Part shown: positions 706 through 40,923 of the stretch, piece after piece
Numbering within the stretch: position 1 is the stretch's first letter
Layout: every line of letters begins with the position of its first letter
Source of the DNA: Moniliella sp. 'wahieum'
Taxonomy: Eukaryota
NCBI GenBank assembly: GCA_003971905.1
Contig: RSEE01000075.1
Span: forward strand, 310,001-354,167
Direction of reading: 5' to 3'
DNA: 44,167 nt
Position numbers and translations under genes: made by a program
The notes under the pieces: generated by a model
Told to the model about the DNA's origin: nothing
Seen by the model: only the letters and a program-made list of their open reading frames with translations
Databases searched by the model: none

Positions 706-933
706 TAACTATTAGTATTGTCTAAGGGTGTAGAGAGGAAAGGTGGCGTACCCGGGCTGCAAGGAGGAACTCGCGTAGACGTGCAGGTGGCACTCAGTGT
801 GAACCACCACCGTTTCCCACTTGGGGTCTCTATCCTCTCATCCCCCACCCGGCCAATCCCCGCTTTACCTGCTTTTGCGCCAGGGTCGTACAGGCACATC
901 TTCTCGCTTTTCCCTGCGGATGGATCTCATGCA

Positions 934-2130
934 TCATGCCTCACTATTTCCCAGAATCTCGTAGGACTGTGACGCTCTGCCAAGCCTATGAACGACACCT
1001 CTTCCCACACTCCCAGCCATCTGGGTAGCAAAGCCAAGCATATCCGGCAAGCGCGTGCAATATGAAGTACATATGAACGCGGGGGACGGGAGGAGACCGA
1101 ATACATCAGGCCTTCTGGTAGCGCCACTTGGGCAAGGGTTTGGGCACCTCGGGATCTCGGTATAGCGGCCAGTACGACGGGCATAGATACCCTTGGCCAG
1201 ACGCACGACCGAGTGCTTTTTAGGGCCACGCTTGCTCATCATACGAGGCGACACCAGCCGGCCCGCCGAGCCCTGCTCCTCCTGGCCGGCAAAGAAAGGT
1301 TTTCCCTTCTTGGGCCGCATCACCGTCGCCCCCGTATGCTCATGGTCCTGAACATGGTACGGAGCGCCCTCGCCCATCTCCTTGAACTTGTTATCGTCGG
1401 GGCGCTGCATACCAAACGCAGCCTCCTCGGCCCGACGCCAGAGGAGGTACTTGTTGGCCAGGTCGGCCAGGCGCTGCCGGCCGGCGAGGCCGGTATAGTG
1501 CGTCACTTTGCGCAGGTTGGCCCTCGTGATCTCCTGGAACCGTTTGATACCCTCGAGGGTAAAGTCCTCGGCGGTGAACTGCTTGCCGGTTGCATACGCC
1601 TCCAGCTCCGGCTTGGCAAACGTGCCGGTGCGCAACGACTCGTGCACCACCGCACGCGCCGCCATCTCCAACTTGAGGTCACGCGGGTTGTCCACCAGCT
1701 CCAGGATCGCACGGTCGGCACAGTCGCCTTTCCTCAGGCCAAACTTATGGATGCGCGTGTACCCGCACCGCCGCACCTCATACCGCGGCATAATCGACTT
1801 GGTGCGCTCCACCATCGATTTGTCATTCTGCCCAGCGCCGACCCACCAACCAGAAGCATGTCAACAGGCCGCCGCGCACGCACACCAGCACAGCCTCCTA
1901 CACAGCAGAGAGCAGAGGAGGAAAAATACGCACGCCAAAGTAGCCCCAGATCTTGGACCAGCCTTGCGGGGTGTCGTGCTTGGCTTTGGTGATCAGCCGT
2001 TCGGCAATCTGCCCGGCCAGCTCGGCGCGCTTGTGGGTGGTGATGATGCGGTCGTGGTGAAGAGGAACTTGACCAGCTGGTGCATGACGCCGGTGGTTTT
2101 TGATGTCCCTACGCGGCGATAGAGAACCAT
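934..2130 (-). CDS. MRPL8: Mitochondrial large-subunit ribosomal protein bL17m (L17 family)
   Basis: ATG at 2130; HDRIITTHKRAELAGQIAERLITKAK; intron 1933-1828 (GTGCGT...GGCAG) joins YFG|NDKSMVER in frame; RYEVRRCGYTRIHKFGLRKGDCADRAILELVDNPRDLKLEMAARAV is the L17 signature. Exact stop uncertain because of indels. Confidence 0.88.
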
Positions 2131-3383
2131 GGTGGGCAAGCAGCCGGCGCGGCGGCGGCGTCGGCAGGGGAGGGGGGAAGGGGGGAGGAGAGGCGGAGGT
2201 GGGAACCGTCAAGCCGGCTCGCTCCGCAACTCATCTTCTCGCCAGCGGGAACGGCGGCGGAACGCATCGGCTCCCGACCGGGTCCGGGCGGAATTAGAAT
2301 TTTCCAGCGCCTCCTGCTTGGGCCGCGGGGGGAAGGCGGGGTAAATTGCGCTCCGTCGACGGTGCCTCTGATGGACGGTCGTCGTTGTTGGCGGTCATGC
2401 CATGCTTTGCTCTCCCGATGGCTTGCGAAGGCACGAGCTGTAGCTGATCTGCCCTCACCCTGCCCATCACATCCGCTTCACTGGGTCCCACTCCACCGTC
2501 TTGCCTACACATCATTGGCGTCATCCACTCGTCTGCACCTGTGGTGGGAGCCCATCGATCCACCGGGTCCCGTAATGTAGGCTGTGTATACATTCTGGCA
2601 GGGCCAGCTTTAGACGGGCATGATGCCAGCCACCCATCTGGGCAAGAAAGATTCTTCAGCCTATGTGTTCCACAGGGCGGGCCTGGGTCGCTTGCTTGCT
2701 TGCTTGCTTCTGTTTCTCTCGTCTGCGGAAGGATGAGAGAGTGAAGATATCTCAGATGTGGCCGTTGAGAGCAAGGCCCATAGCTACCTGCTCTTTGGTT
2801 GCATACTTCCACTATTCTATGGATGCCACAACCAGCCGTCTCAGAAGCAACTCTTAAAATCCCTTTCGCACTGTTCCCACGGCTAGTTGCCTCCCCTCTC
2901 GCTAACACCAGACAATCTGCTGGACATATGGTCCTGGCTACTGCCCAGTTCTCCTCTCTCAAAGTCAATGGTTGGTCCAGGTGCATTTCTGACGCTTTTT
3001 GCGTCTCTGGTCCCAAAATGCGGTACGCGCCATACGAATATCGGGTGTCATGCATCATGGCGATGTTCCTCTTCAACAACGACGTCATTGCAGACGCTCG
3101 ATGTTGACTGTGATCCTCTGGCTCCCAGTCGGTAGACCAGGTTCGCCTCGGTTCCATCGGCTTCCACGCTGACGTCCCTGCGTGTCACTGTCCCTGTGCC
3201 CTGCACTCTCTCCTGTGTGACTCACTGTCCCTGTGCCTAGTCCAGCCTCCTATATAGATGCCTCTGTACCCAGACCCAACTCTGGCTCCAATCCATCACC
3301 TTTCCTCTCATCCTTCTGCCCGTCCGGCTCCCTAGGCCAACACTCGAGTCTGGGTTCGTCAGAGGTCCAACAGGGAGGGGCCG

Positions 3384-3536
3384 TAACCCTAACCCTACTT
3401 GCTTTCCGACAACGACCAGACAGGCATTTTACTGAGAAGGTGAAAATGAAATTTGGCCGGCACCTCATCGCTCATCTTTTGTTCCCACCAAAATGCTGCG
3501 GCAAGTTCAATAGTGCAGATGTGCGCCAACCCTAAC
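3384..3536 (+). promoter_or_regulatory. RPS3 promoter motifs: telobox TAACCCTAACCCTA (3384-3397), AACCCTAAC (3528-3536), PAC-like CTCATCGC (3464-3471), RRPE-like TGAAATTT (3447-3454)
   Basis: Motifs read directly, 75-230 nt upstream of the RPS3 ATG; function inferred from known fungal ribosome-biogenesis promoter elements. Confidence 0.45.
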
Positions 3537-3609
3537 ACCCCTTGGACACCCGCTCTGCATCGCGTTTGCGTTGCTCGCCCGCCCCGCCTGCTTCCTCCAC
3601 CACCAAACC

Positions 3610-7316: not shown

Positions 7317-8176
7317 GGCGGCGCTGAACGTGTTGATGGGCAAAGAACAAAAGAGCACGAGGGAGGATATGTCCCTGCATATACTGTTTTAATGGGCCAC
7401 ACACACAGATTGAGGAGTGCTTACTGCAGTGCCACGCCGCACAGACACCTGTCTGCTCCTGCAAAGCGCACGAGAGGAATATGCCCGCAGCAGAGGGGGG
7501 GGCAGAAGCGCTACGGCACAGGGCGTGGGGACACAGTGTCGAAACGGGCAAATGTGTGGGTGGCGGTAAGGCCTAAGGGATCCATCAATCAGGCACATGA
7601 AAACGGCCGATATGACGCGGACGCGAAGGGGCACACCTGACTCACGTCAACGTCAACGTTCAACGGTTGACTCTTTCCTTGTTGACTTGACGAGGGGAGG
7701 GCACGAGCGGTATTGCATCCGTCGCATGAATATGAGGTCAGTCGGAGCACACAGTGTGGCATGTGGCGCCCTGCTGGATGGACCAGACACTGTGAATCGG
7801 GTGGGGTTACGTGGTACGGCAGTTACTAGTTAGTGCTAGTTGCGCATTACGACCCGAGGCCGAAGCGCTAAGCGATGCAACGCCGTCAAGCTTCAAGGCG
7901 ACGAAGTGTCTGTGCGTTGTGGCCACCTCTCCAGCTGTCCAGTTCTTGGCAGGGGGATACGGCACATGTGACGCCCTTGGGGACGGGGGCGGTGCGCTGG
8001 GCAATGCTGCGTCACATCTCAGATCTCACATAGCAGCGCATCCGCTGCGACAGACCAGCATATCGTTTGGGGGTTATGCAGGGCTACTCGTTTACGCGCG
8101 GCACCCTCCCACACCAGCTACGTCCTGCTACCCTCTGCCTGGCACTTGACGATTGAAGCTGAAGCTCGAGAGAGCG

Positions 8177-8812
8177 AACGTGCCCTCCACACTGGCCTGC
8201 GGAAGCGGGCGACACGGGAGCGCGAGGGGGGCTGCAAGTGCGAGTGCGAGAGCACTGTGGCCTATGTACTGTACTGATCGATGATCGTCGATCAATGTAC
8301 ACTGTAGCCGGGGATGCAGCTTGCGGCCCCAGCGCCGAAGAGGGGGGGGCACACTGAGGAGATTGATGATGAAGTCGGCCGATGATCTCGCCGGTGTCGA
8401 TGATGCATGATGCAATGCAGACGGATGGATGTTCTACTTCGGACGTTGGCCATTCGACCGCTTACTTGTCGTACATAGTCACGATACTCAGGAACACTCT
8501 GCTGGCCACCCCCGTGCCTGCAAAGTCGAGCGGAGCATGCAAGACGCCCTTCTTGCAGCCGTACCATCCACGACCGGACGAGGGAAACTGAACACTGAAC
8601 AACGGGACTGTACCGCCACATGCGACACACGTGTGGAGTACTGAGTACTGAGTACGTTGGGTGACTATAGCGCTATAGCGAAGTTAGTTCTCCAGGCACG
8701 GCGTCTGTTGCGGCCTGAAGTGTCAAGCATGTCATGCATCATGCATCAAGCATGTCCAACCCAAGCTTCGTAAAACGGAAAAGCGAGACTACGTGGTTGG
8801 TATGCGCACGTG
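8177..8812. promoter_or_regulatory. E-box/Pho4-type sites upstream of the transporter: AACGTG (=CACGTT) 8177-8182, CACGTG 8628-8633, CACGTG 8807-8812
   Basis: Hexamers read directly 0.9-1.5 kb upstream of the transporter start; such short motifs can occur by chance. Confidence 0.3.
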
Positions 8813-9238
8813 CCCTTATATGAATGTTGGCGTTGAACTTCAACGTCTTCAACGTTACTGGACGTTGAGTGTTGGTGCACTGAGTTTTGGTGATTACTTG
8901 TCCTCGGGTATCAAATCAGCTTGATCGATGATCTATGGATAGGGCGAAATGCAGAACCGAATAGGATTCACTGCTACGATTCACTAGCCCATTCGCTCAC
9001 AAGCTCAGGTGCCAAAAACAGAGTGGGAAGAGTGTTGACTAGTGACTTCAGCAGTCAACCTGCGGTCGTCGGCGGTCACGGTCGGACGGACGGAACACTA
9101 CTGAGTATCGAATCCGATCCATCTGACAGGTCGGTGCATTGGTGCCCCGGTGCATGATGAGGATATGCATGAGATTGAGAAAACAGCGAACGTAAGTGGT
9201 GCAGCGATAACGAATGAGTGTCTCCTCTCCATCTGCCG

Positions 9239-11491: not shown

Positions 11492-12551
11492 CTTTTTTTC
11501 GGATGACAAAACTGGGTGAGGAACTGAAGATGTTGGGACCAAAATGGTTGACGAAGAATAGAGTGTAGGCGAGATGCTTTCTGTTGTTGGTGCAGTGAGG
11601 TGCAGGGGTGCCCCACACGGGAGTAAGAGAGGAGGCCGGTGGCAGGCCCCACGGGCAACAAATGTGGAGGGGGGCGCAGAAGAGGGTCAGGAAGCACGAA
11701 GCGGGCAGATGAGAGCTGTATGGTCGGGGATGCAGGAGGGCATATCCGAATAGGATAGCGGACTTGGTGTTAGAGTACACATGGTGTGGGCCTGGACAGT
11801 CGATTTGTACATACAACACACCTGCCCCAGTACCCAGTATTCAGGAGTGACTACCAGACACTTGCCTGGGGCCTGGCCAGCGAAGACAGCCTGGGTGCCC
11901 ATGCTCACTGACACGGTCGCTGTGCCGTTCAGGGCACCAGCACCAACTCAGGCATGGCAGGGCATGGCTGGCATTGGCTCGCAGCGCGCAGCGCTGCATT
12001 GCATGGGGGCAAGGACGGATGCAGGCGAGCAGCTGCGGGCAACACTTCGTCACGCGTCACGCGTCAGTACTCAGGCGCGGGTGTGCCCTTCTGCGCCAGT
12101 GCGCCACCCGGTGGCTTGCGCCGGTGCAAGTCATGCATCACACACCGTGGGTGGGGGATGTGTGGCAGCCAGCCAGCGCGTGACGCGTGAGCGTGACCCT
12201 GCGTGCGGCGAGCGGCGGCTGGCCAATGTGGGCACGTGGCGGCGGCGGGGGGGCAACCAGAGTGTGCCTGCCGCCTGGGCCGCCCAGCGCACCGTCCACC
12301 ACAAGCATCCCAGCCTGGCAGCGCGTGCTGCCGATTCAATCGATATTCAAGTTCATGCAACATTGCAATTGCCATAGCATTTGAAAGTTAAATATCAGCA
12401 TGAAATTCTGGCAATGTGCGTCCGTCTGCTCTCGACGAGCGCCCTCGGCAACGGGCAGCACGTGACCGCCTCGCGCTCTCCTCTGGTCGAATGCTGGCTG
12501 GCCATCGTCCACGCATCTCTCCGCTCGCCGCTCGCCTCCCTCCCCCCCCCC

Positions 12552-13996: not shown

Positions 13997-14026
13997 CCCC
14001 ATCCCCATCCCCATCCCCATCCCATC
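13997..14026 (+). repeat. (CCCCAT)n hexamer microsatellite
   Basis: ccccatccccatccccatccccatcccatc just upstream of the TBC gene. Confidence 0.8.
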
Positions 14027-14055
14027 GCCACCCTCGCGATCCCCCCTTTCTCTTG

Positions 14056-16870
14056 ATGAGTTCGCGCACCCCCATGTCCCCCTCCCCACCCACTCTCAGT
14101 ACCGCCACTGGGCCTCCAGCGCCCCCTCCCGCTGCGGCGGCTGACGCCAACGCGAACGAATTCCCGGACGATCTGATTTTCCCTTCGGCGACGGCGACTC
14201 ATCTCACAGGGCTTGGGACCTGGCATGGCCCCTCTCTCGCTGACTTGCACGCTGCCGGTGCGGATGTGGCGGGTGGAATGGGCACATGGGGTCTAGCCCG
14301 GCTCCGCACTGCGTTGACAGGAACAGGGATGGACACGTTGGCCGACTTGGTTGCGCCGGGCTGGCTGCCTCCTGCGACCACCGATGGGGCCGAGGCGGCG
14401 CGGACGGGCGCGGACGAGGTGGCGGAGTGGGCGGCCCAAGCGCGATCCAGTGTGCTGAGCGACTTTGCGTCGATCACTGCTGTGGCACGCGACGGCGTGC
14501 ATGCCGCGCTCACCCACCCGGTTGCCGCCGCCTTGGGTGCCTCCTCGGTCGTTCCCGCCCCCATTGCCACCTGGGCCCACGTCGATGCGTCGGGTCGAGC
14601 AATGATCGTACCCCCTTCCCATCCGTCGCAAGAAGAACAGGCCTCGATGGCCTACGACCCGCAACGCATCGCCTTGGCCCAGTGGGCCTCTCGCCTCGCT
14701 GCGGCTGCGGACCAAGCGCGACAAGACACGGATACGCCCCAAGTTCGTCGCAGCTCGGCCGCCAGCTCAGGTTGGCGGTTGCCTTGGGACCGCGCGGCGC
14801 GCCCCGTCCCCATTGCTCTTTCCGAATGGAAGGCTTGGATGAACGATGCGGGGCAGTTGGACGCAACCAATCCCCACGCTGGCGCCGCCATCTGTACCTG
14901 TTCCCCCGTCCTCCTTGTCCTCTGACCCCGCTATTGCAGTGGGTCAGGCTGTAGGGCGCAAATTTTCTCGCGCGGCGTGGCCAGCGACGCGCGCCATGTT
15001 ATCTGGCCTTTCCTGTTGGGCGTGTACCCGTGGGATAGCACCTTGGCCCACCGCCAGTTGCTTCTCACGCAGCTTCAGACCGAGTACACTGACTGGTCCG
15101 CCCGCGCCGAGGCCCTGCTGCGCTACCAAAAGCATAAGGCCTCTTCCTCCGACCCCGACCCCGGTTCCGATCCCGTTCCCGATCCCGATCCTGACCCCGA
15201 TTCACACCCTCCACCTCAGGCTGCCCCCGCCCCCCCCGATCCGTCGGGGGAGATTACTTACCCTACTCTTCGTCCTCTTCGTGCTGTTCTTTGGAGTCAA
15301 GATACTGATCTCGACGTGGATGTTCGCGAGGAACGGCGGCGGATCCGGCTCGACTCGGAACGCACTGATCGAGAACACATCCTTTTCCGCGTGCCCACCA
15401 CTCCGCTTCGCTCGGTGCCCGACCACGCGGCAACGGCAGTGGAGCAGGGGAGGAGGATGCTGTGGAAGATGGCCCTCCTCCCACTAACATCCACATTGCC
15501 GCCCTCAACTCCATCCTCCTCGCCCTCGTCTTCTGGGACACTCGCGCTACCGCGCTTGCAGAGCAGAAGCCTCAGGACCCCGTTGTCTCCGCCTCTACTC
15601 CACCTCTTCTTCGGCCTCTGCCTCCGTCTCCACCTCGACCGACGTGCCCGCCAAGTTGGGCGGCTATGCACAGGGCATTTCCGACATCTGCCGTCCTTTA
15701 CGGCTCTTTTCCCTTTGGACAGATCGGCGTGGGAATGGGAATGGGAATGGGAATGGGAATGGGAATGGGAGCGAGAACGAGGAAGTGCCACCGCGTTCGC
15801 TGGTCGAAGCACTACGTTTGGCTGCTTGCGCGCGCTCTTGACTTGCTTTGGATGGAGCGCGCCGTTCCGCCGGGACCAAAAGGCCATGACGGCCGCACTG
15901 GCTTCGTTGCGCGGCATGTTGCGCACCTGCGCCCCCGACACGTATCGCCACTACTCGTCTCGAGGCGGACAACTTGTTCTTTGCTTATCGGTACGTTTCC
16001 CACTCCCAGTATGAATCCGAATCCCAATCCGAATCCGAATCCCAATCCCAATCCCAATCCGAGCCGTCGTCCCTACGCCCGCCCGGCCGAATCCGAACGT
16101 ACTAACCTCTTCCCTTCCCTTTTCTTATCTTTTCTTATCTTATTTTCTTATTTTCTCTTTTGTCTCTGACTTCTGGCTTGGCTCGTTGTTCCCTCGCGCG
16201 TGCAGCTGGCTGCTGGTCACCTTCAAGCGCGAGTTGGAGTTGGAAGATACGTGCCGGGTGTGGGAGGCGATCTGGGCCGCAGATAGCGAGCTGGCCGGTC
16301 TGTCGCGCTCGGTCGTGCCAACCGAGAGGCAGAGACCGATGCCACGGCAACGGCCAAGGCCAACGCGGATGCTGATCGGCACCGGGCCGCGTTGCAGCAA
16401 GGACCAGGTACGCCAGCCAGCTTCAGCTTGGTCTTGGCCTTTGCGTTGATCGTACGCGAAACGTTAGCCTGGCTCAGCTCCAAGTGTTTGACGAGGCATT
16501 GCATTACTTTAACTCGCTTGCTCCGCCGGCCGGCACGGCAGCGGCCAATCATCCTTCTGCCTCTGCCTCTGCCTCTGCTCCTGCCTCGGACTTGGCGTCG
16601 GGGTCCGGGCCGGAATCCGGTACCGAACCAACCGTACACTGCCGTCGGGGACGACTTGCTCTTTCGTGCGGCACGGGCTGCTCGCGACCTCCCAGGACTC
16701 TGGCCGCCCCCGCCTGTCAGCTTTCCAACGCGGCCGTGAGGCGCGGGTACGGGCCGTGGCGCGGAGGAGGGCTGCGCTGGAGGCACTGTATTGCTGAAAT
16801 GATATATCAGAATGCCGAGGGCGCGGACGAGGATGAAGAGGATGAGCTTGAAGAGAACGACTGCACCTAG
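14056..16870 (+). CDS. GYP7: TBC-domain Rab GTPase-activating protein, Gyp7-like
   Basis: RHVIWPFLLGVYPWDS; IRLDSERTDR (IxxDxxR arginine finger); GGYAQGISD (YxQ glutamine finger); FRRDQKAM; LFFAYR | intron 15991-16205 | WLLVTFKRELELEDTCRVWEAIWA; FDEALHYFNSL. Low-complexity inserts; ends approximate. Confidence 0.85.
15731..15770 (+). repeat. (GGGAAT)6 microsatellite inside a TBC exon
   Basis: gggaatgggaatgggaatgggaatgggaatgggaatggga; encodes a dipeptide repeat, probably GN in the YAQG frame. Confidence 0.85.
16014..16061 (+). repeat. (AATCCS)n microsatellite in the TBC intron
   Basis: aatccgaatcccaatccgaatccgaatcccaatcccaatcccaatccg. Confidence 0.85.
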
Positions 16871-19468: not shown

Positions 19469-20226
19469 GGTGCGAACGTTTCCCTGGAGAAGCGGGGGGC
19501 CGGGGTGGGGTGTGGCAGGAAGGCGTGCACAGTGTGTGGTAGCAACCAGCCAACTTGCCCCGCCGCGCCTGGTTTCGTCTTGCTCGCAATTTGCAAACCA
19601 ACCAATCAAAAAAAAAGTGGGGGGCGGAACAAAAATTGCAGGGTCTGGACACCTTTGTTCCGCTCGGCGCTTACCTTCACGCGCTTTCCCAGTGGCCAGC
19701 CGCTCAGCTGCATCAGGACACAGTGCCCTGGAAGCACTGGGGGGCTCTCCATCGTCATTGTCGTAGGGGCTGCGTCGTCACGCGTCACGCGTCAGATCTC
19801 ATCACCCTGTTTCTGCAACTTCACACCATGTACTCTGCTTGCTTCGTATATCGCCCTGTGTCAGATTTGGAGGGGGATGGCCACGAGATATTGACATCAT
19901 GATGGCGACGCCCTCTTAAATGGGTTACGAAGAAAGAAAGCTGCATTAGCGAGTCATGTGGGCAAGTGCTGTTTTCCGTCTTCGTCATTCTCAAGTTCTT
20001 TTGTGGACATGATATATGGAGACAGGGATATTCACTCAATAAAAAGATAAATGGACTCGCATTCGCATTCGCATTCACAAGTCCACAGTTCAGACCAGCT
20101 GAAGCAAAAATAGATTGGAGGGTGACTTGCACTGTCCCAAGAAAATAAGGCAGAAAAAAGATAAAATAGGCAGAAGGAAAATGATGCTGGCGCAGCCAGC
20201 GTCCCTAGAGAGAGGGGAAGAAAGCA

Positions 20227-21515: not shown

Positions 21516-24173
21516 GGCGACAGCTGGGGGGAGTTGGGGCGGGGGGGAGAGTAAAGACGGTAGGGCAAAAGAGACAGAGAAAGAACGTAAAGGCCAGCTT
21601 CCGTCTTGGAGTGGTGGATAGGAGGGGGAGGGGGGCGGGAAGGCGAGAGGAGGTGGAGGAGAGGTGGTGGGGGTGTTGGATTGGGGAGAGGGGCTGGTAC
21701 TCAAGAGAGCCGCTAGCTGCTAACCATTTTGTTACTACTTCAATGGAGTGACTATAGGCAACGCACACACGCCGGGACTCGTGTGCTTTCATCAGCCATT
21801 AGTTGGACTATGCCGGACTGCCCCTCTGCCCTAGGGCGATCGGCGATGGTGGATGATGACTGCTTGCCGCTGGTGAAGATCTGGTATCGGGTGCGATGCG
21901 CCTCGCAGGCTGAACTTGGCGGCGGAGCGCTTGCAGGAGCGCTTGCAGACAACCCCATGGGATTCCGCATGTGTGCGCTCCACACATCATGGCTGTCGGG
22001 GGGGCTGGGAAACAGGTGGGCGCAGAGCCAGTGCGCGGGCATCGGCTTATCATGTGCTGGGCGTGTGGAGACTTAGGGGTGCTCACTGCCCCGTGCAGAG
22101 GGGAATTGCCCCACACTGTGCTGTGGCGCGTTACCTCCTGTGCGTTACTTCTTTGTGCGCCCTTTTGGTTGTCATGCATCATGCATCATGCAGTCTCCAT
22201 GTCACATGTCATGAGCACCCACATCTACCGGCATCACCAGTATGCTCTTATCCACTTCCTCCGCACGGATGATCATGACATCAGGGCTTCACAGATCTAT
22301 AGTAGGACTAGAGAACCACAAGGCCTATACGGCCCCCAGACTGGGCGGACCTTATATCGATGCTTTGTTTACCGTGCGTTGTGTGTATTGAAGGTCTGAG
22401 CCTTCGCTTCCCCCGTGTTGGTGGAGACAACCCACGGCCATTTTTCTCCCCTGAGGCACACCGTTCCATACTATGCCCCTTACCCCCCTGGTACCCCGTT
22501 CCATAGACCTCTCTCTTCGGTCTCGTCCACGCTGTTCATCGTTCACGCCAACAGAGACCTCCTCTCCAGCATGCAACATAGGTTAACATTCCATTATATT
22601 CAGGGTGGCGTAGCACGCCGTTCCGTTGTCAGGAGCAGGAAAGCGCGGAAGACCACTGGAGAGCAGGATGTTGATATTAGTGTATCGCATTGCACATGTG
22701 TTACACAGAAGCTAGATAATATTCCTACGCGCCAGGAAGGAACATTGCAATGAATGAATCCGAAGGTTCCGGGCTTGGGCTACCACTACACTAGTGTGGC
22801 GTCATAGAAAGCGTTGTGGCAGCCAGTAGCAAGAAAGCGTACCAGGCTGAAGCAGGAACACGCGACTGGTATGGCCCCACAGACAAGCAGGTAACCGAGA
22901 AAAGCGGTGCGCCTCAAAGCACATTTGTCGTTGTTGATCTGCCATGCGATGAAGATCGAGGCCCGGGTTGTCGACGGATGGCAGGCCCCTGATTCTCGGC
23001 TGCTGCTCCGTCTGGGAGCCCCGCCTAGTGCTTACTGTTCCATCTGGGATGCCCGCCTAGTGCTTCTTCTTGGCCAGGAGGGGACAACTTATAGTCACAC
23101 CGTTGCATCGTCGTCGTCGCGACCGCAAGCACCGTCTATGGCCCACAGCGCTGATCGATAACCGTGTCTGCCTTAGCAACCGTTCCTTCGGCCATCGTTC
23201 CATTACCCAATCGTGATCGTGAACCGCAGCCACCATTCCATCGTCCATGCGTCCTGATGAGCCACCGTAGGCACTGCCCCGCGTCGTTTCAGCCGTAGCC
23301 ACCGTTCCACTGTCCACCTTGATCCTTCACCGCACGATCCGTCGCCACCCGTCCACCGTGGGGAGTTGCGACCACAGCCCCTAAGCGGAGGGGGCTGCTC
23401 ATGTGGCAAGGCTACCACGTACGCACCGGCTTGGGTCGTAGTAACGTATCTGAAGCCTCTGGGGCTTAGGGACGGGTGGAGAGGTAGTGGAGGACAAACA
23501 CTGCCAGAGCTCGGGCTGAAGAGGGGCAGCTGATGACGTGGCTGTGGAAAGGAACCTGCGCGATAAGCTGGTACGGTACGGGGACTCGACGCGGCTGATT
23601 AAGGAAGGCTCGCGCGACTGGGTAATGCAGAAGCTGTGGGAGACAAGGATGGAAAAGACGAGAGGAGGCAACTAAATGAAGACAAGGTTGACTGTACCGA
23701 ACCAATTGGCTGGAATCGGGCAGGAGTTGAACAGAAAGGCGGGAAGGGACGCGAATGGAAGATGGTGAAAGGTCCTCCTGACCCGGTACAGAAGTTAGAT
23801 CCGAAAAGGGAAAAGTGTTGGAGTGTGGTGGCATGTGGCACCACTTGGTGTGATGGCTGGATCGGCCATGTCGCTGGCAAGCGGAACTGGCTATAGAGTT
23901 GCGCGACTCGCGCGCTCCGGATTGGTTACCGTCGCGCCCTCGTTCCCCTCCTTCCTCTTCTCCTGTTGCATTGAAGGTTGGACTAGCGTCAGGAGCTTAC
24001 AAGAAGCTATCTCTGACTGTTCCCACCTGCACAGTGCAATCGTCCTTAGCTTGGTAGCGTAGCTACTTCTCAGTTAACGGACAACCGCGGTTCTGGGCTC
24101 TCACTGCAGTGGTGTGACCGATTCATCGCGCTCACCCATTGATCGCCCGGTCTAGTGCTTCACCCTAGCCCCA

Positions 24174-24205
24174 ATCTACAAATTCATAACGCAGACCCCC
24201 TTTTT
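24174..24205 (+). repeat. 32-bp direct repeat B, copy 1 (ATCTACAAATTCATAACGCAGACCCCCTTTTT); candidate Helitron 5' end A|TC
   Basis: Identical to 27781-27812. Confidence 0.9.
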
Positions 24206-27200: not shown

Positions 27201-27700
27201 CGGAGCCCAGCCGGGGGCTGCGGCGCCGGGGGCGAGTGGGGGTTGGGAGGAGGGGCGTGCCTTGACCCGGTACTTCGGCACCGGGTTCCTGCTTCGGAGT
27301 TGCGGGGGCAGCGGGCCCTGTTGTGGCCAGGGTTCGTGCAAAGGGAGCAATGATACTCGCGCTTGGGGGTGGGTCGGTGGCGGGGGGGCGGGGGGGTGGT
27401 GGGTACGGGGACGGGGTGGTGGGATGGGGTGGGGTGGCGGCGGGCGGGGCGGCGTGTCACGTGCCAGGACCCCAGGTGGCAGCAAGCCGGCGCCGGTCAC
27501 GTGGTCAGGCATCTGCTCAGGTTGAGTGAATGTCTCATCGACCGCACTTGGTGCTCTGGGGCCAAAGGGCGGGTGTGGGGGACGGGGCGGGAGCGGGGGG
27601 CGGGGCTCCCGGGGAGGGGGCGTCTCGGGCGCCAGGACCTCCTCGGGGGGATCCGCCATACGGGTGCGCAACACCATGGGCGGTGCCGGGGTGGTGGTCC
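24206..27700 (-). mobile_element. Non-LTR retrotransposon with restriction-like endonuclease (CRE/Cnl1/MoTeR-like), single ORF 27677-24307 broken by indels
   Basis: Pro-rich N-terminus with CCHC knuckle CSLCTNPGHNRARC; RT motifs GAGLSGW, GGIRPIACG, GVRQGDPL, VMAYLDDI, SGLKLNLRKC, LPLRLGGCG; C-terminal CKCG..HIMSC, NEP, RTD, KNAKY, FFPLVLTTRG (RLE). No APE domain. About 100-nt 3' UTR ends at the A5 of repeat B. Confidence 0.92.
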
Positions 27701-27896
27701 TTTACGTAAAATTACACAAGCATGCCACCTGGCACGTTTCACCCGGCGCGTTCCAGGCGGGCGCAGCCAGGCGGATGCGCATCTACAAATTCATAACGCA
27801 GACCCCCTTTTTACTTTACGTAAAATTACACAAGCATGCCACCTGGCACGTTTCACCCGGCGCGTTCCAGGCGGGCGCAGCCAGGCGGATGCGCAT
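27700..27896 (+). repeat. 83-bp direct repeat A (27700-27782 and 27814-27896) separated by repeat B copy 2; period 114 bp
   Basis: CTTTACGTAAAATTACACAAGCATGCC...CCAGGCGGATGCGCAT occurs twice, identical. Confidence 0.92.
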
Positions 27897-28074: not shown

Positions 28075-28335
28075 TCTTTCAAATGGGGGTGTAGAAAGGG
28101 AGATATGACAAAAGGGGTTGGCTGCCGCAGGCGCAACGGAGAAAGATAAAGTAAGAGGTGACGCGGGGACAGTCGTCGCAAAGATGCCGGAAACTTGGTG
28201 GTGTCATTTAGGCCAACCGACTTCGACTTAAGCGGGGGGCGACTCTTGAAGCTTGACACGCGGATGCGTGGCCGCTCGGGCCACCGTACATCGTTTAACG
28301 TTTAACTGACCACCTCGGAGCAACGTACTCAGTCT

Positions 28336-31300
28336 TTTTGAACATTGTTAAGCGCTGGGAACCGACGTCCAGCCCTCTTCGATAATTGATCTCGGCTTGT
28401 TTCGGAGATCAGATCGATCAACGTCAACCATCTCGACCATCAAACGGTCGAGCAAACCATTCATGTCGACCACATGGAGGGCGCTGCTTCTGCCGATGAA
28501 CTTGTCCAGGCTGTGGTGCGTGTCATCCTGCCGCGCATGTGTGAATGGGGCTGACGGGAAGGTGCCTTCCCCCCCCCGAACGACTTGGAGCAGCATGTCC
28601 GTTCGGCCCTGCGTGAGTTGGACCCGGGTTCACCGTTGTCTCAAGTGATGCCTGTTGTCGCCGCGCGCGTGGTGACCTCGTCTCTAGTCAAGAACGGCCT
28701 GCTTCCGGTGCCGGCGGCGATGGATGTTCAGCTCGGGGTCTGCGGTGGGGCGTGGGACCCATCCACTGTCCGAGCCTACCCGCTCTTGGCTCTCGGCCGT
28801 TTCCAACCACAGGGCGATCTGGCCAAAGCGCATCTCGCCCTCTGTGGCCACATGTTCCCTGCACCCCCGACGTGCGATGGAGAGGAACGAAATACCAGGC
28901 TTCGTCCTCTTCTGGGTGCTGCGCCCGTCCAAGACGCTATTTCCCATGGTGTCCACTCCATTCTTCAGTTGCTGCGTTCGGCTGCCTCAGACTTGCACAC
29001 AGCGGTCACGCCTGACCGGCCTGATTCTTGCCCGTCTCCCATTCCCCGGGATGGCTCGTCATCCGCGGTACAATCTCCACCCCTAGATAATGATTCTACC
29101 CACCTTTCAAATATACCGCTCTGCCCTTCCGATGTTTCCGTTCACCACTCCGAGGATCTGCAGGCTACCGGTGATGTCCAGCAACGGCTGCACGAACTTC
29201 AGCAAGGGAAATGCCCGTGGACGAGTATGCGCGCAAGTTCATGGACCTCCTATTTGATGTAGAGGCCTATCGCGACAGTCCCGAAATGGCGATGACCCTA
29301 TTCACGCGCGTCTTTCCCCGGAATTGCGCCAAGCCTACTTTTATGTGAACCACTCTTTTCAATTCAAGTCCCTGGATGAACTAGTCGAGTGGGCGGTTCG
29401 GGCAGAGTCATCGCAGGACGTCCTTCCCGCGACGGATGATCGCCCAGTAGATGTGCGCGAGGCTTCTCCTGCTGGCTCCATTTTGTCACCGAGCTATGAA
29501 TCCTGCGTGACATCCGATGACGGATCCGACCCGACAGACTTGGATGGAGCAGGACTCCTTGAACGCATTGACAGGCGTCATCTCCCCATCAGCAGAAGAA
29601 TACGTACGCCGACGTGGATTCAATTTGTGCATGCGCTGTGGGAAATCTGGTCACTGGCGTGACGCCTGTCCTCTGCGACTATTCGAGTGGGCGGATCAGG
29701 CGGAGTCATCGCAGCACGTCTTTCCCGCGATCAATAATCGCTCAGTAGATGTGCGTGAGGCTTCTCCTGGCTCCATTTTGTCACCGAGCTATGAAGCCTG
29801 CGTGTCTTCCGATGACGGGTCCGACCCGACAGATCTGAATGGAGCAGGACGCCGTCGTCGCATTAGCAGGCGTTATCGCCCCATCAGCAATGAAGAGTAC
29901 GCCCGCCGACGTGGATTCAATTTGTGCATGCGCTGCGGAGAATCGGGCCACTGGCGTGACACCTGTCCTCTGCGCCAACTAAGTGGTTTGCGGCGTGGGC
30001 GGCGAAACAGTGGGTTTCCGTCCTGAAGAAGATGGGACCAGTGGAGCAGCCAGGGCTATACTCATCCTAGGGCGGATCGGGTCAGGCGCGCCATTAAGGG
30101 CATGCGCCCCAAGGCGCCCAATTATAGGGGTAAGGGCCGCACTGTGGATGTGTATCGGGTCCACCTACTTCGTCCCTGATGGTCGATACGTTTGTCAAAT
30201 CGCCCAGAGTCACCACCCCCACCGCCCCTGTGGCCTGATGCGCCCATTGCGCGTTTCTTCTTGTCCCTGGTCCAGTTTCAGTATGGACCACTTCGTGCCC
30301 CTACCGGAAAGAGGGATTGGAACTTGGGTGGGGCGAGGTGCTCGACATGATGCGGATGATGGTCGACGGCAGTCCAAGATAGTGCTCATCCCGTGCAGCC
30401 CGAGTGATACTGCGACTCCCTTGTTTGAGCCGCTGACGCAGAAAGTCTTCTACGTGTTGGACCTGCTTACCGAGCGACCGAGGACCTCTGTTCACCTGTG
30501 TCCAGATGAGTGGCTTTTGTGACTGGCATTTCATCCGTCAACGTTTGACCACTACCCAGCATCCCCATGCCGGATGGGCAGTCTGTGCGGTTTGTCGATT
30601 TGATCAAGATCTATATCTGCACCATTTTACCAATTGCACGCAGTCCGATTAGCCACTTCTTCCATGCGGCTTCTTTTGATCTCACCACCTCCCGTTCCAC
30701 TTTCAGTATCCATGTTCGACATCATACATGGATCCCAGTCGTTCAACCGGGAGACCCCATGGAGACCGCACTTACGCCAGGGAAGGAGCATCACTTGGTC
30801 CGAATCAAGGCGACCAGCTCGGCCAGGAGTCTTTGGAGAAGATCGGCCTGAAGCGTTACGCGAATCGTATGCTTGTCAATCATGTTCTCCTCTTGGACGA
30901 GGGAGATTAGGTAGTGGTCGACAAGGGGAGGGCGCCTTTCACTCGGGCAAAAGTGACTCTTTGGGGATTGAAGTGCGTGGGCTCTTTCAAGGTTAAGTTG
31001 AAGGCGCACGGGTGTCTTTTCTCATTGATCATCCTCCCTGCATTAGAATCCATCCCATATAAGTGTCTCTGCCTTCGAACAGTACCGTTTCGACGCGGTT
31101 CTCGACGCTGTTCCGTTTGAGTGATGAGCCAGTGCCTCCTCCGTCCACGGTTGAGCGAGGAGAGTAGTCCTGGCTGTTTTATCAGATCTTTGACTCGCGT
31201 CTCCCCCATTATCAGCTCCAGTACTTTTCTTATTTTTTTGCTTCCCTGATTTGGATATTGAGGAATGACTGCGTCTCACCCCAACACATGAGGGAAATGA

Positions 31301-31540: not shown

Positions 31541-31713
31541 GATGCCTGCCCGTTTCCGGGATCTGCCATGGACACTGAGGCTCAGATCTGAGGCTCCGAC
31601 CTGAGGGACTCTACTGACGCTGATGCATGATGCGCTGATGGCGCTGATGCGTCAGTGATTCTACGCCCGCCCCGCATTTTTCTCACCGATGCCTCTAATC
31701 AGCGCAATCAGCC

Positions 31714-32990
31714 TTTTGAACATTGTTAAGCGCCGGTAATCGACGTCCAGCCCTCTTCAATTCATTCCGGCTTTTTTTCGGAGGAAGCTAGGAAGGTCAA
31801 TCATCTCGACCATCGAACGGTCGTCGAGCAAGTCATCCACGTCGAGCACCATGGAGGGCGCTGCTTCTGCCGATGAACTTGTCCAGGCTGTGGTGCGTGC
31901 CGTCCTGCCGCGCATGTGTGAATGGGGCTGACGGGAAGGTGCCTTTGCCCCCCCCCCCCCCAGAACGACTTGGAGCAGCATGTCCGTTCGGCCCTGCGTG
32001 AGTTGGACCCGGGCTCACCGTTGTCCCAAGTGATGCCTGCTGTCGCCGCGCGCGTGGTGACCTCGTCTCTGGTCAAGAACGGCCTGCTTCCGGTGCCGGC
32101 GGCGATGGATGTTCAGCTCGGGGTCTGCAGTGGGGCGTGGGACCCATCCACTGTCCGAGCCTACCCGCTCTTGGCTCTCGGCCGTTTCCAACCACAGGGC
32201 GATCTGGCCAAAGCGCATCTCGCCCTCTGTGGCCACATGTTCCCTGCACCCCCGACGTGCGATGGAGAGGAACGAAATACCAGGCTTCGTCCTCTTCTGG
32301 TGCTGCACCCGTCCAAGACGCTATTTCCCATGGTGTCCACTCCATTCTTCAGTTGCTGCGTCCGGCTGACTCAGACTTGCACACAGCGGTCTTAGTGCCT
32401 AAACTCCCTGACCCTTCCTCGTCGTCCATTCCCCGGGATGGCTCGACAACTGCAGTACAATCCCCCCCCCTCAATAATGATCTTACCCCCATCCAACTAT
32501 GCCGCCCTGCCCCTCGGTTCAAACGCAGCACGCTCAACTTGATGATGAGAGAAGGGACAAGCAACATCTCTCTGCATGTGGACCAGGGTTAGATTCTCGC
32601 AGTAAGATGCAAGGCAAACGTCCTTCTGAAGGCAAGGCGCGAGAGGGAGCTTCAAAGCGCATGATGCTACCTAAGAAACAGCACGACGTAGTGCCTTCCC
32701 CACTGCCTTCGAACCGTGCCGCAGGTATATTGGAAGGTAAGGTGCTCCTCAAGATTCTCCAGAGTCGTCGTGAGGAAACTTCGCGGGTGATACGCCTACT
32801 TGGCACGCTGGACCGACTTTCCTAGCAGTGAAGACGAGTGGGTACCCGCCGCTGCGTTTCTTCACCTCGTGCCTGCTGTTCTCGACTTTCACAGCAGTCA
32901 TCCAGAAGCCCCATGTTCCAATCGTCGCCGTCTATTAATACGCGTTGCCTCCTCCAAGGGCAAAGGAAGAGGGGATAAGGTCACGGGTGG
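31714..32990 (+). mobile_element. Degenerate Ty3/gypsy copy 2: gag 5' region joined to chromodomain and polypurine tract
   Basis: 31714-32490 repeats 28336-29105 (near-identical in 31970-32390); then chromodomain-like ARWTDFPSSEDEWVPAAAFLHLVPAVLDFHSSHPEAP, PPT AAAGGAAGAGGGGATAA, then GTCACGGG (degenerate TGTCAC LTR start). Confidence 0.8.
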
Positions 32991-33714
32991 ACCGTAACTC
33001 CATCTATCTTTATTTTTGGCCTTGCCTGCATTGTTCGCGCGTCCCTTCACATCTCAGCTTCAAGCAAAATTCAGCCCTGTCTCATCTGCGTGTTGGCCAC
33101 GGCCACCTACCCCCCCCACATATGGTGCTCTCTCTATCATGGAAACGCACGCTGCCACATGCCTGTGAAGACGAAACAACTTGGACGAAACTACTGCCAT
33201 CGCGATGCGCTTTGCTTCTCGAGCGACGAGGTCACCGTGAGAGGGGTTACACTGGATAAACATGTTGAGCGCCGAATGGGCTCAAGAATGGGCCCAACAA
33301 TGGCCTGGGGCGGGGCTCATAGAAGGGTGCGCGCGTAGGCGCAGGGGTAGCGTCCAAGACGAAGAGGGTCCTGTGTTCGGGGGGGCCCAGACGTAGAAGC
33401 AGATGCAAGATCAGCTCAGCAACTCGTGGGTGGCCGTTGAGAGTTGAGTCTCAACTCTGAGAAGATGGGGATTTGGGCGTGGTCGATCCCCTGGATCATC
33501 GATCATTAAGATCATTAAGATCATTGCTTAGCGCTTATTGATCACACGTCACGAAACACCTCTAACCCTATACCTGCGTTTTACAATCTGAAATCAAGTC
33601 ACTCCCGGCGGACTCCAAGAACGCCGGTCTCAGATCTCCGATCCCTCAGCCGGCGGTGGACCAAGGCGCCTCGGAAGAACAGCGCCAGTCCTCCTTCGCC
33701 TTCTTCCCACCACC

Positions 33715-37292: not shown

Positions 37293-38705
37293 GGCGGTAG
37301 CGATGGCAATAAGAGGATGCAGAGAAGGCGGTGGGGGGAGGGGGTGGGGGTGGAAGAGAGGGATGGAGTTAGAGAGGTCGCGCCAAGAAATAGAGAATGC
37401 CGGCCCTGCTCTTGGTTGCAGCTGCTCAGGCCTCAGGCTGAGGAAGCAAGGGCGGGGCAGTGCGGTGGGGTGGCGTCCCCCACCGTGTGGTGCCAGCAGC
37501 AGGCGGCACCAATAATCGATCAGTATCGATTATCGCGCATTGCATCGCCACGTCACTGAGTTTCAGCCTGTTTTCAGCGGCTTCGCCCAGCGGCCCCGCA
37601 GAGCTCCGCGGCGTCAGGTTGCGCTCAATGCGCTCAACCTCAACGTCCAGACGTAACGACAAGGACAACGCTTTTACGCTGAACGTCCGCATCCCACCAG
37701 TGCCTCAGCCGCTCAGCCGCGCAGCGCTCAGCGTTGGAAGCGTTCGGGGAGATGCGTGACGCGGACGCGTGACACGTGACATGTGTGGCCGCAGCGGACC
37801 GCAGGGGACGTGTGTTGAGACGCTTTCACTCGTGGCGTGTTGCATGTTTTTACGCGTTGCGCTTTCCGCGTCATTTGCGTCACCGATCCCCTGACCGCGT
37901 GACCGTGTGACCGGCTACTGGGCGGCAAGGAAGGGTTGATGCGTTGATATTTGATCAAGATTGGGTACTGGTCTGAAAGACCTGAATATTGAATAGAGCC
38001 AGCTTGAATCTCCTGAAAGGTGGAGTTTTTCCCGTGCAAGAACGCTGCCATACGTAGACGTGTAGTACATATAGACGCGTACCCCACAGACATACATAGC
38101 CGGCATAACCCGTAACGCGTAACGCGTAACCGCGTAACCGGTAACCTAGCGACCAAGAACACGGACCGTACCCATCCTGTACACGGAGGCCGAAGCCAAC
38201 AAAACACCATGACATACCGTCCTGTCTGCCTTCCGGCTTCCCAGACCGGAGACCGGTGACCGGTGACCCGTCGGCGACCGATGCCGGTTGCGGCTCTTTC
38301 CGACTTACCCCGCCTTGCTCCGGGAAGCCACAATGACGTGAGCATCACGCGTCACACTGTCAGTCCGGTGAGCCACTAGTCACTGGTCATGCACATGGTG
38401 GTGATGCCGGTGATGCACTGGTGGTGCATGTGGCGGGGAGATCCTAGAGATCCCGGGCTGTCCGCTCGCGGGGTGCAAGCTATGTTCAAACAGAGAACAT
38501 AATTATGCCACGGGCGAACCCACTATGGCGCGCCTCCTCCGGCTTCCAGCTTCAAGCGTCAAATGGACCTTCAGCATCCCCTTGTCGGGGCGGCCAGGAA
38601 AGGCAAAGCGGCAAGCGACAACGGCAAGACAAACGACAAGCTGCAAGATTGCATGGAGCGATCCGCCTGTTGCTTTGTGTGCCCCGCCACTGTCCTCGCC
38701 ACTGC

Positions 38706-38756
38706 CCGCCACCGCCACTGCCCCGCCACCGCCACTGCCCCGCCACCGCCACTGCC
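38706..38756 (+). repeat. 17-bp minisatellite (CCGCCACCGCCACTGCC)x3
   Basis: Three exact units plus degenerate units upstream. Confidence 0.8.
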
Positions 38757-40046
38757 CTGCCCATTTGCACTTCTGAGACACTCAAACTCAAACTGCGAAG
38801 CTTTCACTTTTCACTTTTGGGGGACGGTGCCTGCTGTGGCAGGCTGTGGCCGCCCGCAGGGGAAGGGACGCGAGATATTGAAGGCGTCAGATAGAATAGT
38901 CACTAGTCACTAGTCACTAGTCTGTACTCAGTCTAAGTACTTAGTGGCTCATGGACACAGGCACAACACGCTATAATAGCTTCCGTTCAACATGTGATTC
39001 TGTAGCCGAACGCCACCCACCGCCACCCCACCGTCTCCTCTTCTCCCCCCCCCACATGTCCCACTCGCGCTCGGCGCTCATGCACTCAGTGAGTACTCAG
39101 TACTCAGTACTCAGTCTGAGTACTCACTATTCATGTCACATGTCACAGTACTCATCAGATAGCAGCCGTACTCTTCAAATCGCCCTCGCTTATGCTTTGG
39201 CCCAGGATCTTGGTCTTTCCATCTCCGTGCCCATCAGTGCATCCGCAGACGTGCATGTCCGCCTGGCCGACGTTCGCAGTCGTGACCGGGTGGCCCTGGT
39301 GGCCCAGACACATGGATGTGGTGCATGATGCATGATGAGATCGATGAGAGGGCGATGTACCCTGGTGGCGAAAACGATACCGAGAACGGTACATACCCAT
39401 GTGTGTGTGTTGTGGTCCAGGTATACCAGGCAGAGCCATGCGATGTTTCAACGTGCTACCTCGGTGCCGTTGACCGGTGAGTTCACCGCTCTCCTGAGCC
39501 GAGAGCGCGTGAGCACACGTTTTCTCTCCTCCGTTCCTGTGTGGGGTAGAGAGACTAGAGAGGCTAAGCGCTAAGCTTAGCGCTAATATATAAGGCCCTC
39601 GCAACGATATGTAGATGCGATATTGCATGCGGCCAGTTCTCGGCGGAGGAACTGTCTGCATCGTCTTGATCCACAATCCTTTTCACTTCTCCTTCTCGCA
39701 TCTCCGCACCTCAGACCTCAGGCTGAGGCCTCATCCACTGCCCATAATCTTCCTCGTGGCAGTCCTTCCTGGGCAGTCCTTGGTCCGACTCAGCCAGGCT
39801 TCAGGGCCTCAGGCCCTTTTCAGGCCGGCCTCCATGGATCAGGCCATCGGTGCATTACGCCCTCAGAAGGGTTCATCCAGTCGCTTTCATTTTTTACCTT
39901 CATGGATACATACCTCGTTACGTGTCATGCGCACGCTTGAGGCCGGCCGAGGCTTCGGGCTGGTTTCGGAACCACATATGCAAGAATGATTACTGACCTT
40001 ACGTTTACCTCCGCTCATCAACACAACTCGAGACAATGTGCCGGGG

Positions 40047-40170
40047 TCACCGGTCAATATTCAACGTATTCAACGTACATTCAACGATGATCGATGAAGC
40101 TTGAAGCTTGAAGCTAGCTTGAAGCTTGAAGTTCAAGCTTAGCTGCTTCAAGCTTCAGCTTAATGCATCA
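40047..40170. repeat. Densest TNA+palindrome heptamer chain (cores CCGG, ATAT, ACGT, TCGA, AGCT, TGCA)
   Basis: TCA CCGG TCA ATAT TCA ACGT ... TGA TCGA TGA AGCT TGA AGCT TGA AGCT ... TCA AGCT TCA ... TAA TGCA TCA. Confidence 0.85.
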
Positions 40171-40923
40171 TGGTGAAGATTATATAGCGCACCAGTGCAT
40201 CTGCGCGCCTACTAGCTACTGGCGCCTCATGAAGCTGTGGAGTGCATTCTTATAACATTAGCATCAGAACAAAAGCTAGAGGGACATGATGCATGATGCA
40301 TGATGAAAAACGGGGAACCCAAGGATTCGGTTGTTGGGAACCTCACAAAAGAAGTAAAGTAACTAGTAACTAGTGACCAGCAATGCCAAGGCAATGATGG
40401 TGATCTAAACCGTTTGTTCCACACCTGAAGAAGACAGGGAGACGATAATTAAGCGATTGCCCTGGTTTTTGGTTTCTCCCGGGTGCTTCAGGTTAGAGTG
40501 GGGGGGGGGTGCTAGGGAAAATGGATGGTGGCTAGTATGATTGTTGTCATTCTTCGCGTGTCATGCAGGCAGGCGCTGCACTTGGAGACGGGGGTTTATC
40601 CCGCACTTATAAGTGCGGTGGATCTGGAGCTTCCAGTGCTTAGTTCCTTGTCCCTCTTAAGTCGACTACACAAACTGGTAATAGTCATCACAAGATTGCA
40701 TCGTTTCGATCATCCAAAAACATCGCAAAAAAGACAGGTAACCCCGACGGAGGTACTCTGACAGTCCTCTCTCTCCTGCCCCCATCGTTAGACACACTGT
40801 AAGCTCAGTATGCAATGACAACTAATAAGCGGAGACACCCCCCGCCTCCTCCTCCGGATGAGAGTACCCCGAGACAGGGCCACTCTTCGAGCAACGGGAG
40901 GGTCAGCCATCTCTTTTCGCAGC

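Follow-up and report, generated by a model that had tools for sequence, protein, structure and literature searches.

What kind of event could have left the same seven-nucleotide scaffold, filled each time with a different short palindrome, between the genes of a fungal contig? The question is raised by a stretch of Moniliella sp. 'wahieum' DNA (assembly GCA_003971905.1, contig RSEE01000075.1, positions 310,001 to 354,167 of the forward strand), referred to here as the window, which is 44,167 bases long with a G+C content of 58% and in which direct repeats of T-N-A (TNA, where N is any base) recur around 4-nt palindromes. These heptamers are probably excision footprints of a cut-and-paste DNA element lying outside the window. 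The principle, an excision footprint that carries palindromic nucleotides derived from hairpins, is already known and is the most likely cause; what is unusual is that the target is 7 bp with a central TNA, that the hairpin is even-centred and that the loci lie very densely, and the parameters of target and hairpin fit no family checked.

An earlier note, made from the letters of this DNA, had drawn attention to the pattern TNA-[4-nt palindrome]-TNA at 15 positions, and all 15 carry the 10-mers that it gave. A scan of the full window finds 58 matches with the same N on both sides, compared with a mean of 1.6 (standard deviation (SD) 1.2, maximum 6) in 200 dinucleotide-preserving shuffles, which were used as the null model. 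Fourteen of the 16 palindromic tetramers occur as cores, AATT and TTAA being missing, and the scaffold takes the forms TCA (28), TGA (20), TAA (7) and TTA (3), so that the core and spacer counts of the note were borne out. With a non-palindromic core the TNA scaffold stays near background (34 matches against 22.6 in shuffles). Palindromic cores on all non-TNA scaffolds pooled give 78 matches against about 45.6, an excess made up partly of rotations (alternative parses) of TGCA arrays, and among scaffolds of the form a'-N-a (primes mark complements) enrichment is seen only for a' = T and a = A. Palindromes as such are not enriched in the window (672 six-mers against 696).

The geometry is equally strict. 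The spacing between identical TNAs has its sole peak at 7 (92 against 25.2, SD 5.0), neither 6 (41 against 25.7) nor 8 (31 against 23.9) being clearly enriched, and palindromic cores of 2, 6 and 8 nt between TNAs give 8, 0 and 1 matches. As the middle base N is repeated directly in 58 cases and complemented in only 7 (it is otherwise different in 5), the scaffold is a direct repeat and not a long palindrome. The matches lie almost entirely outside open reading frames (ORFs): the 19.8 kb outside gene and transposon ORF spans hold 56, where shuffles give 0.77 (SD 0.81), and the 24.3 kb of ORF spans hold 2, where shuffles give 0.76. The latter two (5323 and 25667) are at chance level and bear no relation to their flanks. 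Set against non-palindromic cores, other scaffolds and shuffles, a comparison which the earlier note had proposed for the whole genome, only TNA with a 4-nt palindrome is enriched in this window. The signature is real, strong and specific, and lies far above chance.

The core had been thought to be free of sequence constraint, which proved wrong. The 58 matches group into 45 arrays, and in 38 of these the core is templated by the flanking dinucleotide, where the chance expectation for a 2-nt match on at least one side is about 12%. The first two bases outside an array repeat the adjacent core at 59 and 58 of the 90 array ends, and the third and fourth bases do so at 38 and 33; the positions that a next TNA would occupy are at baseline (24, 25 and 19 of 90). 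By flank match, 14 arrays are right-only (R-type), 12 are left-only (L-type), 12 match on both flanks and 7 on neither, the last group including both matches in ORF spans. The match is therefore one-sided in 26 of the 45 arrays, and 31 of the 45 consist of a single core between two TNAs. Usually the outcome is the 12-mer TNAxy-y'x'-TNAxy, or the same in mirror image, that is, a 5-nt direct repeat parted by an inverted copy of its own last two bases. Within the class of 5-nt repeats with 2 inverted nucleotides, T.A stands at offset 0 in 68 matches, with 3 and 8 at other offsets and 0.0 in shuffles, and the initial T precedes NAxy-y'x'T-NAxy in 68 of 76 cases. The inserted nucleotides are thus inverted copies of the adjoining flank end, in the 68 registered matches as in the 38 arrays. 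Perfect 12-mers were found at 35 loci (0.1 expected) and versions with one mismatch at 23 (5.75 expected, an excess of about 17); because perfect loci are so many and one-mismatch loci so few, the one-sided form is not a decayed remnant of longer arrays.

Junctions of other lengths, listed below, bear on the size of the duplicated target, written here as ab-TNA-xy.

8838, 31634, 31697, 33501-33510, 38400, 39334 and 40059: +9 junctions (seven loci), full 7-mer ab-TNA-xy, 2 inverted nucleotides, full 7-mer
38125: +8 junction, full 7-mer, 1 inverted nucleotide, full 7-mer
40109: +11 junction, two neighbouring 4-nt palindromes of different origin (both overhangs), AGCTAGCT
8587, 37768 and 38802: plain +7 junctions, perfect non-palindromic 7-mer duplication with central TNA
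+6 junctions: 5-mer, 1 inverted nucleotide, 5-mer (7 matches against 0.8 in shuffles)

In the +9 class, T.A is exactly central in 10 of 14 matches, spread over the 7 loci, where shuffles give 0.1. Plain perfect duplications of the 7-mer are rare, with 3 to 4 loci compared with the 35 perfect 12-mer loci. Perfect palindromes of the form TNA-pal4-TN'A (pal4 being the 4-nt palindrome) number 7 against 0.9, as longer inverted tracts predict, and TNATNA (+3, both overhangs lost) is not significantly enriched (21 against 13.6, SD 4.1). Four junction types that follow one another at 38106-38146 are all explained by one 7-mer, CGTAACC, and at 40088 the left core TCGA is predicted by the left flank and the right core AGCT by the right flank, as an inverted-plus-direct copy. 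A direct duplication of the target is kept at the site, as seen from the excess of direct over inverted TNA and from the full 7-mer at the +9, +8 and perfect loci; the same excess, together with enrichment at spacing 7 only, is the behaviour of a target-site duplication. A duplication of 5 bp (TNAxy) with 2 inverted nucleotides also fits the 12-mer; it is asymmetric, and since the +9 and +8 loci show the whole of ab-TNA-xy, it was superseded by the 7-bp model.

From this grammar and these counts we infer an element, hairpins and an order of events, which may be set out as follows. Integration would proceed by a 7-bp staggered cut centred on T-N-A in a target ab-TNA-xy whose a, b, x, y and N are subject to hardly any constraint, and each insertion would thereby be flanked by two copies of the 7-mer. 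On excision, the transposase would turn each chromosomal flank into a perfect hairpin whose closure lies precisely at the 7-mer copy's outer end, a geometry of the RAG/Transib type that lacks the 1-nt offset of hAT. Host nucleases would nick each hairpin about 2 nt off its tip and so produce 4-nt self-complementary overhangs, xy-y'x' on the left and b'a'-ab on the right, on duplex ends ...abTNA and TNAxy.... End joining that kept one overhang and trimmed the other (+2/-2) would then yield ab-TNA-xyy'x'-TNA-xy or ab-TNA-b'a'ab-TNA-xy, so that 7 nt are gained overall. Since T pairs with A, a nick 3 nt off the tip would lead to the identical product; one placed 4 nt off the tip would give a complemented N, and other combinations of opening and trimming would give the +6, +8, +9 and +11 products. 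The new y'x'-TNA-xy site could be targeted again, with repeated cycles or slippage producing arrays of one core, and events using the outer flank would add a different core on the shared scaffold to give mixed arrays. A single scheme would account for the +7 arrays and for the side-product junctions.

According to the earlier note, an enzymatic event recurs at TNA-centred sites and adds 7 nt each time. Such an event, restricted to non-coding DNA, is supported; it is better described as a 7-bp duplication of ab-TNA-xy with +2/-2 end processing than as an insertion into a 3-nt site, since the +9, +8 and +11 side products display the whole 7-mer. Its suggestion of a hairpin intermediate to explain the palindromic core is supported, yet the hairpins themselves stay inferred. 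Its suggestion of a footprint holds in part, as far as the junction grammar goes; the footprint is our interpretation, and no element was found in the window.

The proposed chemistry was compared with that of known systems. In V(D)J recombination and in Transib, perfect hairpins are formed on the flanking DNA and opened about 2 nt off the tip, which leaves 4-nt self-complementary overhangs and 2-nt palindromic (P) nucleotides; the Transib target duplication is 5 bp. The loci described here share with Transib and RAG the even-centred palindromes, typically of 2 nt, at the exact end of the duplicated target. The resemblance is one of chemistry only, as the duplication is 7 bp and not 5 bp, and no RAG- or Transib-like gene was seen in the window. 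In its hairpin geometry the proposed reaction resembles RAG/Transib more closely than hAT. The hAT target consensus is nTnnnnAn, and hAT duplications are usually 8 bp with odd-centred palindromes (1-nt offset), unlike the 7 bp, central TNA and even-centred xy/y'x' seen here; spacings of 6 and 8 are not clearly enriched, and no hAT transposase was found in the window among the ORFs scanned.

In other respects the hAT elements offer the closest precedent. According to passages of PMC5873905, Ac/Ds footprints in three fungi and in plants, with Candida and budding yeast among the hosts studied, consist of deletions plus inserted palindromic P nucleotides from hairpin-closed flanks, a few products predominate, and resolution depends on host factors such as Pso2; the palindromes have as their centre the complement of the element-adjacent base. 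As with Ac/Ds and Tam3 in that account (PMC5873905), both copies of the target duplication stay at our loci, short palindromes are templated by the flank, presumably by way of ends closed as hairpins, most junctions are of one or two kinds, and host factors for opening hairpins and joining ends would be involved. The earlier note recognised no described counterpart, but the hAT model of excision footprints, duplication plus P nucleotides, is classical (PMC5873905, in part).

Duplications of 7 bp have been described, in the relevant part of PMC12730594, for hAT7 in rust fungi and for Kyakuja (KDZ) in Agaricomycotina, both of which share this length, and the Basidiomycota as hosts, with the loci in the window. 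Kyakuja differs in its termini, which that part of the paper gives as CA..TG without inverted repeats (PMC12730594), and hAT7 would differ in its footprints. Odd-centred palindromes would be expected from hAT7. P-type excision, to our knowledge, takes place without flank hairpins. Galileo, a P-superfamily element of Drosophila, has a 7-bp quasi-palindromic target with the consensus GTAGTAC in the account seen of PMC2775673, and is similar in duplication length, in the quasi-palindromic target and in the free central base (PMC2775673); its centre is A-N-T, unlike T-N-A here. For excision in other groups, sections of PMC4423477 report that one study put the share of precise mPing excisions at 83% of about 30 events, while another saw precise excision at only one of about 70 sites, and that exactly two duplication copies were left in 8 of 94 inferred excisions in rice (PMC4423477). 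Excision of the Mutator-like Muta1 is given as mostly precise in a section of PMC5225508. In open-access papers and preprints no paper describing TNA-palindrome heptamers was found, which is no proof of absence from print, and searches with exact array strings returned irrelevant matches only.

Several results weigh against excision of a DNA element as the source of the heptamers. No DNA transposase domain was found among the 114 of 201 window ORFs of at least 100 aa that were scanned with Pfam. A search of the window for resident elements that pair terminal inverted repeats with a 7-bp duplication centred on TNA found none, 2 of 1202 candidate pairs reaching 9 of 12 inverted-repeat matches, about the control rate; an element with a 3-bp TNA duplication was likewise sought in the window and nothing was found. 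The density is extreme for footprints, with 43 non-ORF arrays and about 20 variant loci in 19.8 kb containing 918 TNA sites. The 35 perfect loci, compared with an excess of about 17 with one mismatch, make the loci look young and suggest a divergence of about 4% or less, so that a very active element or homogenisation would be needed. Internal cores predicted by neither flank occur in three arrays (GTAC at 12064, GATC at 19792 and ATAT at 40054), and five non-ORF arrays have no flank match (8732, 12131, 38345, 39471 and 39584). Lastly, we know of no described family in which a 7-bp duplication centred on TNA goes together with even-centred hairpins. A more novel reading, possible though on balance doubtful, is that the scars are made by an undescribed kind of eukaryotic DNA element, or by a host-domesticated enzyme without a resident element, which in a basidiomycete would combine a 7-bp TNA-centred staggered cut with RAG-like perfect hairpins on the flanks.

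Of the other explanations, one would dispense with transposition altogether: a nuclease or domesticated transposase of the host cuts nnTNAnn with a 7-nt stagger, and the ends are filled, processed or hairpinned and rejoined, no element ever having been resident. The lack of an element in the window, the very dense and young-looking loci and the single grammar at every locus would suit such a process. We consider it unlikely, as no known nuclease yields a 7-nt fill-in duplication and inverted (P-type) nucleotides with a coupled +2/-2 outcome, whereas integration followed by hairpin excision yields both features in one known scheme, and no candidate gene for such an enzyme is present in the window.

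The loci could also be heptamer microsatellites, whose units of N plus a 6-bp palindrome fold into hairpins on either strand and gain copies through replication slippage, with quasi-palindrome correction (template switching) producing the palindromic cores. Arrays reach 3.7 exact copies, there is a degenerate 7-copy tract, the unit is strand-symmetric, and the twelve two-sided arrays are compatible with this origin. Slippage requires a pre-existing repeat, however, and most loci are minimal, being one-sided 12-mers with 2 TNAs that stop sharply after 2 or 4 nt. The restriction of enrichment to T and A among the a'-N-a scaffolds and the strict registration on TNA also count against it, slippage does not produce the +9, +8, +6 and +11 junctions with their inverted nucleotides, and non-palindromic 7-mer duplications left uncorrected are few (3 to 4 loci compared with 35). 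As the origin of the signature slippage thus appears quite improbable, and it may still lengthen the longer arrays.

Elements of the PIF/Harbinger-ISL2EU-Spy (PHIS) type might leave a 3-bp TNA duplication together with 2 nt of each inverted terminus (TNA-xy/y'x'-TNA). Tc1/mariner footprints keep terminal nucleotides of the inverted ends, which is the principle behind this idea, and 2 nt from each inverted end would indeed make a 4-nt palindrome. The T-N-A target is a point of likeness, and TNA-duplicating groups (NuwaII, C/TNA/G) occur in basidiomycetes, NuwaII with its 3-bp TNA duplication having been found in two of them according to a portion of PMC4482050. The explanation is disfavoured and seems very unlikely: one family's termini would give one core where 14 are seen, GGCC, the core expected from GG...CC termini, makes up only 3 of the 58, the core follows the local flank, and the +9 loci duplicate 7 nt, unlike the 3 bp of PHIS. 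Hardly probable either are selected cis-regulatory or structural promoter motifs (ACGCGT-type boxes, stop codons in all frames), which the intergenic, mostly upstream location and the ACGCGT repeats common to the arrays at 12050 and 19778 might suggest, or a sequencing or assembly artefact, as a freely varying core that copies its flank is no binding site, an artefact would neither avoid ORFs nor copy flanking dinucleotides inverted, and neither predicts the +6 to +11 junction series.

Other arrangements of duplication and remainder were tried and rejected. A 3-bp TNA duplication with leftover 2-nt termini was ruled out by the 14 cores and their dependence on the flank. If the 4-nt palindrome were the target duplication and TNA the remainder, core-TNA-core should occur without a second TNA, which it does in only 1 of 24 cases. 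A 4-nt repeat with 3 inverted nucleotides does without the first T, which is present in 68 of 76. Decayed 14-mers would need about 25% divergence, and one-mismatch loci are few. Odd-centred hairpins of the hAT type and inverted (rolling-hairpin) duplication do not give the observed 12-mer.

The loci are distributed over the window as follows.

927..939: R-type TCA-TGCA-TCA-tg, 3' end of the mitochondrial L17-like gene
3048..3059: R-type TCA-TGCA-TCA-tg, divergent promoter of the L17-like and uS3-like genes
7567..9047: hot zone in the intergenic DNA that separates a transporter-like gene (minus strand) from an HLH gene (minus strand), 12 TNA-pal4-TNA arrays; arrays at 7567, 7653, 7823, 7886, 8019, 8275, 8401, 8642, 8732, 8922 and 9036; variants +9 at 8838, perfect double target site at 8587, +6 at 7647 and 8154
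12048..12190: region upstream of the Vps22/EAP30 gene with three arrays, namely cg-TCA-CGCG-TCA-CGCG-TCA-GTAC-TCA (mixed; CGCG twice as L-type, no explanation for GTAC), TCA-TGCA-TCA at 12131 (no flank match) and L-type TGA-CGCG-TGA at 12181
19776..19801: upstream of the Noc2 gene, array cg-TCA-CGCG-TCA-CGCG-TCA-GATC-TCA (L-type CGCG twice, GATC unexplained)
22172..22213: R-type TCA-TGCA array with three TNAs, and L-type TCA-CATG-TCA
28245..28306: L-type TGA-AGCT-TGA, and TTA-ACGT-TTA matching both flanks
31621..31712: R-type TGA-TGCA-TGA at 31621; a pair of +9 junctions (full 7-mer twice with 2 inverted nucleotides), GCTGATG at 31634 and AATCAGC-GC-AATCAGC at 31697
33494..33550: upstream of the HAD-hydrolase gene, L-type TCA-TCGA-TCA, L-type TTA-GCGC-TTA, and +9 GATCATT-AA-GATCATT with 2.8 units
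37425..40376: 3-kb intergenic hot zone, 21 TNA-pal4-TNA arrays; the CGTAACC site at 38106-38146 with L-type (CGCG twice), +8 (1 inverted nucleotide) and R-type (CCGG) junctions; TGA/TCA arrays at 40047-40157 with cores TCGA, AGCT, CCGG and ATAT and the +11 junction at 40109; +9 loci at 38400, 39334 and 40059; perfect double target sites at 37768, 38802 and 39708

Within the first hot zone, positions 8665-8680 read CTATAGCGCTATAG, a perfect 14-nt palindrome of two 8-nt units; this is compatible with a junction of a 6-mer and 2 inverted nucleotides, but TATAGC begins with TAT and not with TNA. The arrays at 12047-12073 and 19775-19801 lie 7.7 kb apart, each upstream of a gene, and are identical over their first 21 nt (TCG-TCACGCG-TCACGCG-TCAG), which include two ACGCGT hexamers. 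This common stretch may have arisen independently from similar cg-TCA sites, or the two may have a regulatory box in common.

The remainder of the window is of mixed content. Its longest ORF, using the usual start codons, is 377 aa. Fungal or eukaryotic domains were detected on ORF fragments for mitochondrial L17, uS3, an HLH factor, Vps22/EAP30 and Noc2, with further fragments matching a glycosyl hydrolase, a HAD hydrolase and an OPT transporter. The top homologues of the Vps22 exon are from basidiomycetes with an identity of only about 42-52%, which places the organism as a basidiomycete-like fungus, and therefore no close relative is present in the databases. Searches of the window for tRNA genes found none, and those for Rfam families gave nothing useful. 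The mobile-element domains detected by Pfam were a LINE-like (long interspersed nuclear element) reverse transcriptase and the CCHC zinc knuckles of gag-like ORFs, with no others. Repeats and retroelements noted in the window are as follows.

15149-16062: hexamer repeats inside a long ORF, CCGATC, TGGGAA (6.8 exact copies) and GAATCC (8.3 copies), in frame and giving dipeptide runs, e.g. WEWEWE and PDPDPD
21202-21346: degenerate GTGATG/GTGGTG repeat with a 36-nt super-period, within or adjoining the glycosyl-hydrolase gene, on the minus strand a Thr/Ile/Ala-rich run
24174-27896, minus strand: LINE-like retroelement with a reverse transcriptase domain, a proline-rich zinc-knuckle ORF and a C-terminal Cys/His ORF
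24174-24205 and 27781-27812: identical 32-nt direct repeat bracketing the LINE-like retroelement
27700-27782 and 27814-27896: two identical 83-nt copies near the same retroelement
28336-29101 and 31714-32488: two copies of a CCHC zinc-knuckle gag-like region, spaced 3.38 kb apart, 78-98% identical, with a C9 run in one copy and C14 in the other (31948-31961)
29380-29974: internal tandem duplication of about 297 bp in the gag-like region, 86-89% identical
44142-44167: degenerate TTAGGG-type tract (GGGTTA-like units) that closes the window, G-rich strand running 5' to 3' towards the end

The two copies of the 3.4-kb internal duplication were compared for 7-nt indels, which gave nothing useful. 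The degenerate TTAGGG-type tract suggests that the right end of the window is a chromosome end, and the whole window would then be subtelomeric.

If the heptamers are excision footprints, the approximately 60 independent junctions in 20 kb would document, as a natural collection, the way in which breaks capped by hairpins are repaired in a fungus, the outcome being a stereotyped +2/-2, and would point to a highly active element whose target (7 bp, central TNA) is unusually paired with its chemistry (perfect hairpins). Footprints alone could then seed heptamer tandem arrays and 6-bp palindromes in promoters, which would bear on the birth of microsatellites and on how promoters evolve. Other genomes can be scanned directly for the footprint grammar. 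Should a novel element or domesticated enzyme prove responsible, roughly one in ten to fifteen intergenic TNA sites would have been struck, and much of the new intergenic sequence of this genome, with its 6-bp palindromes and heptamer arrays, would have this activity as a leading source.

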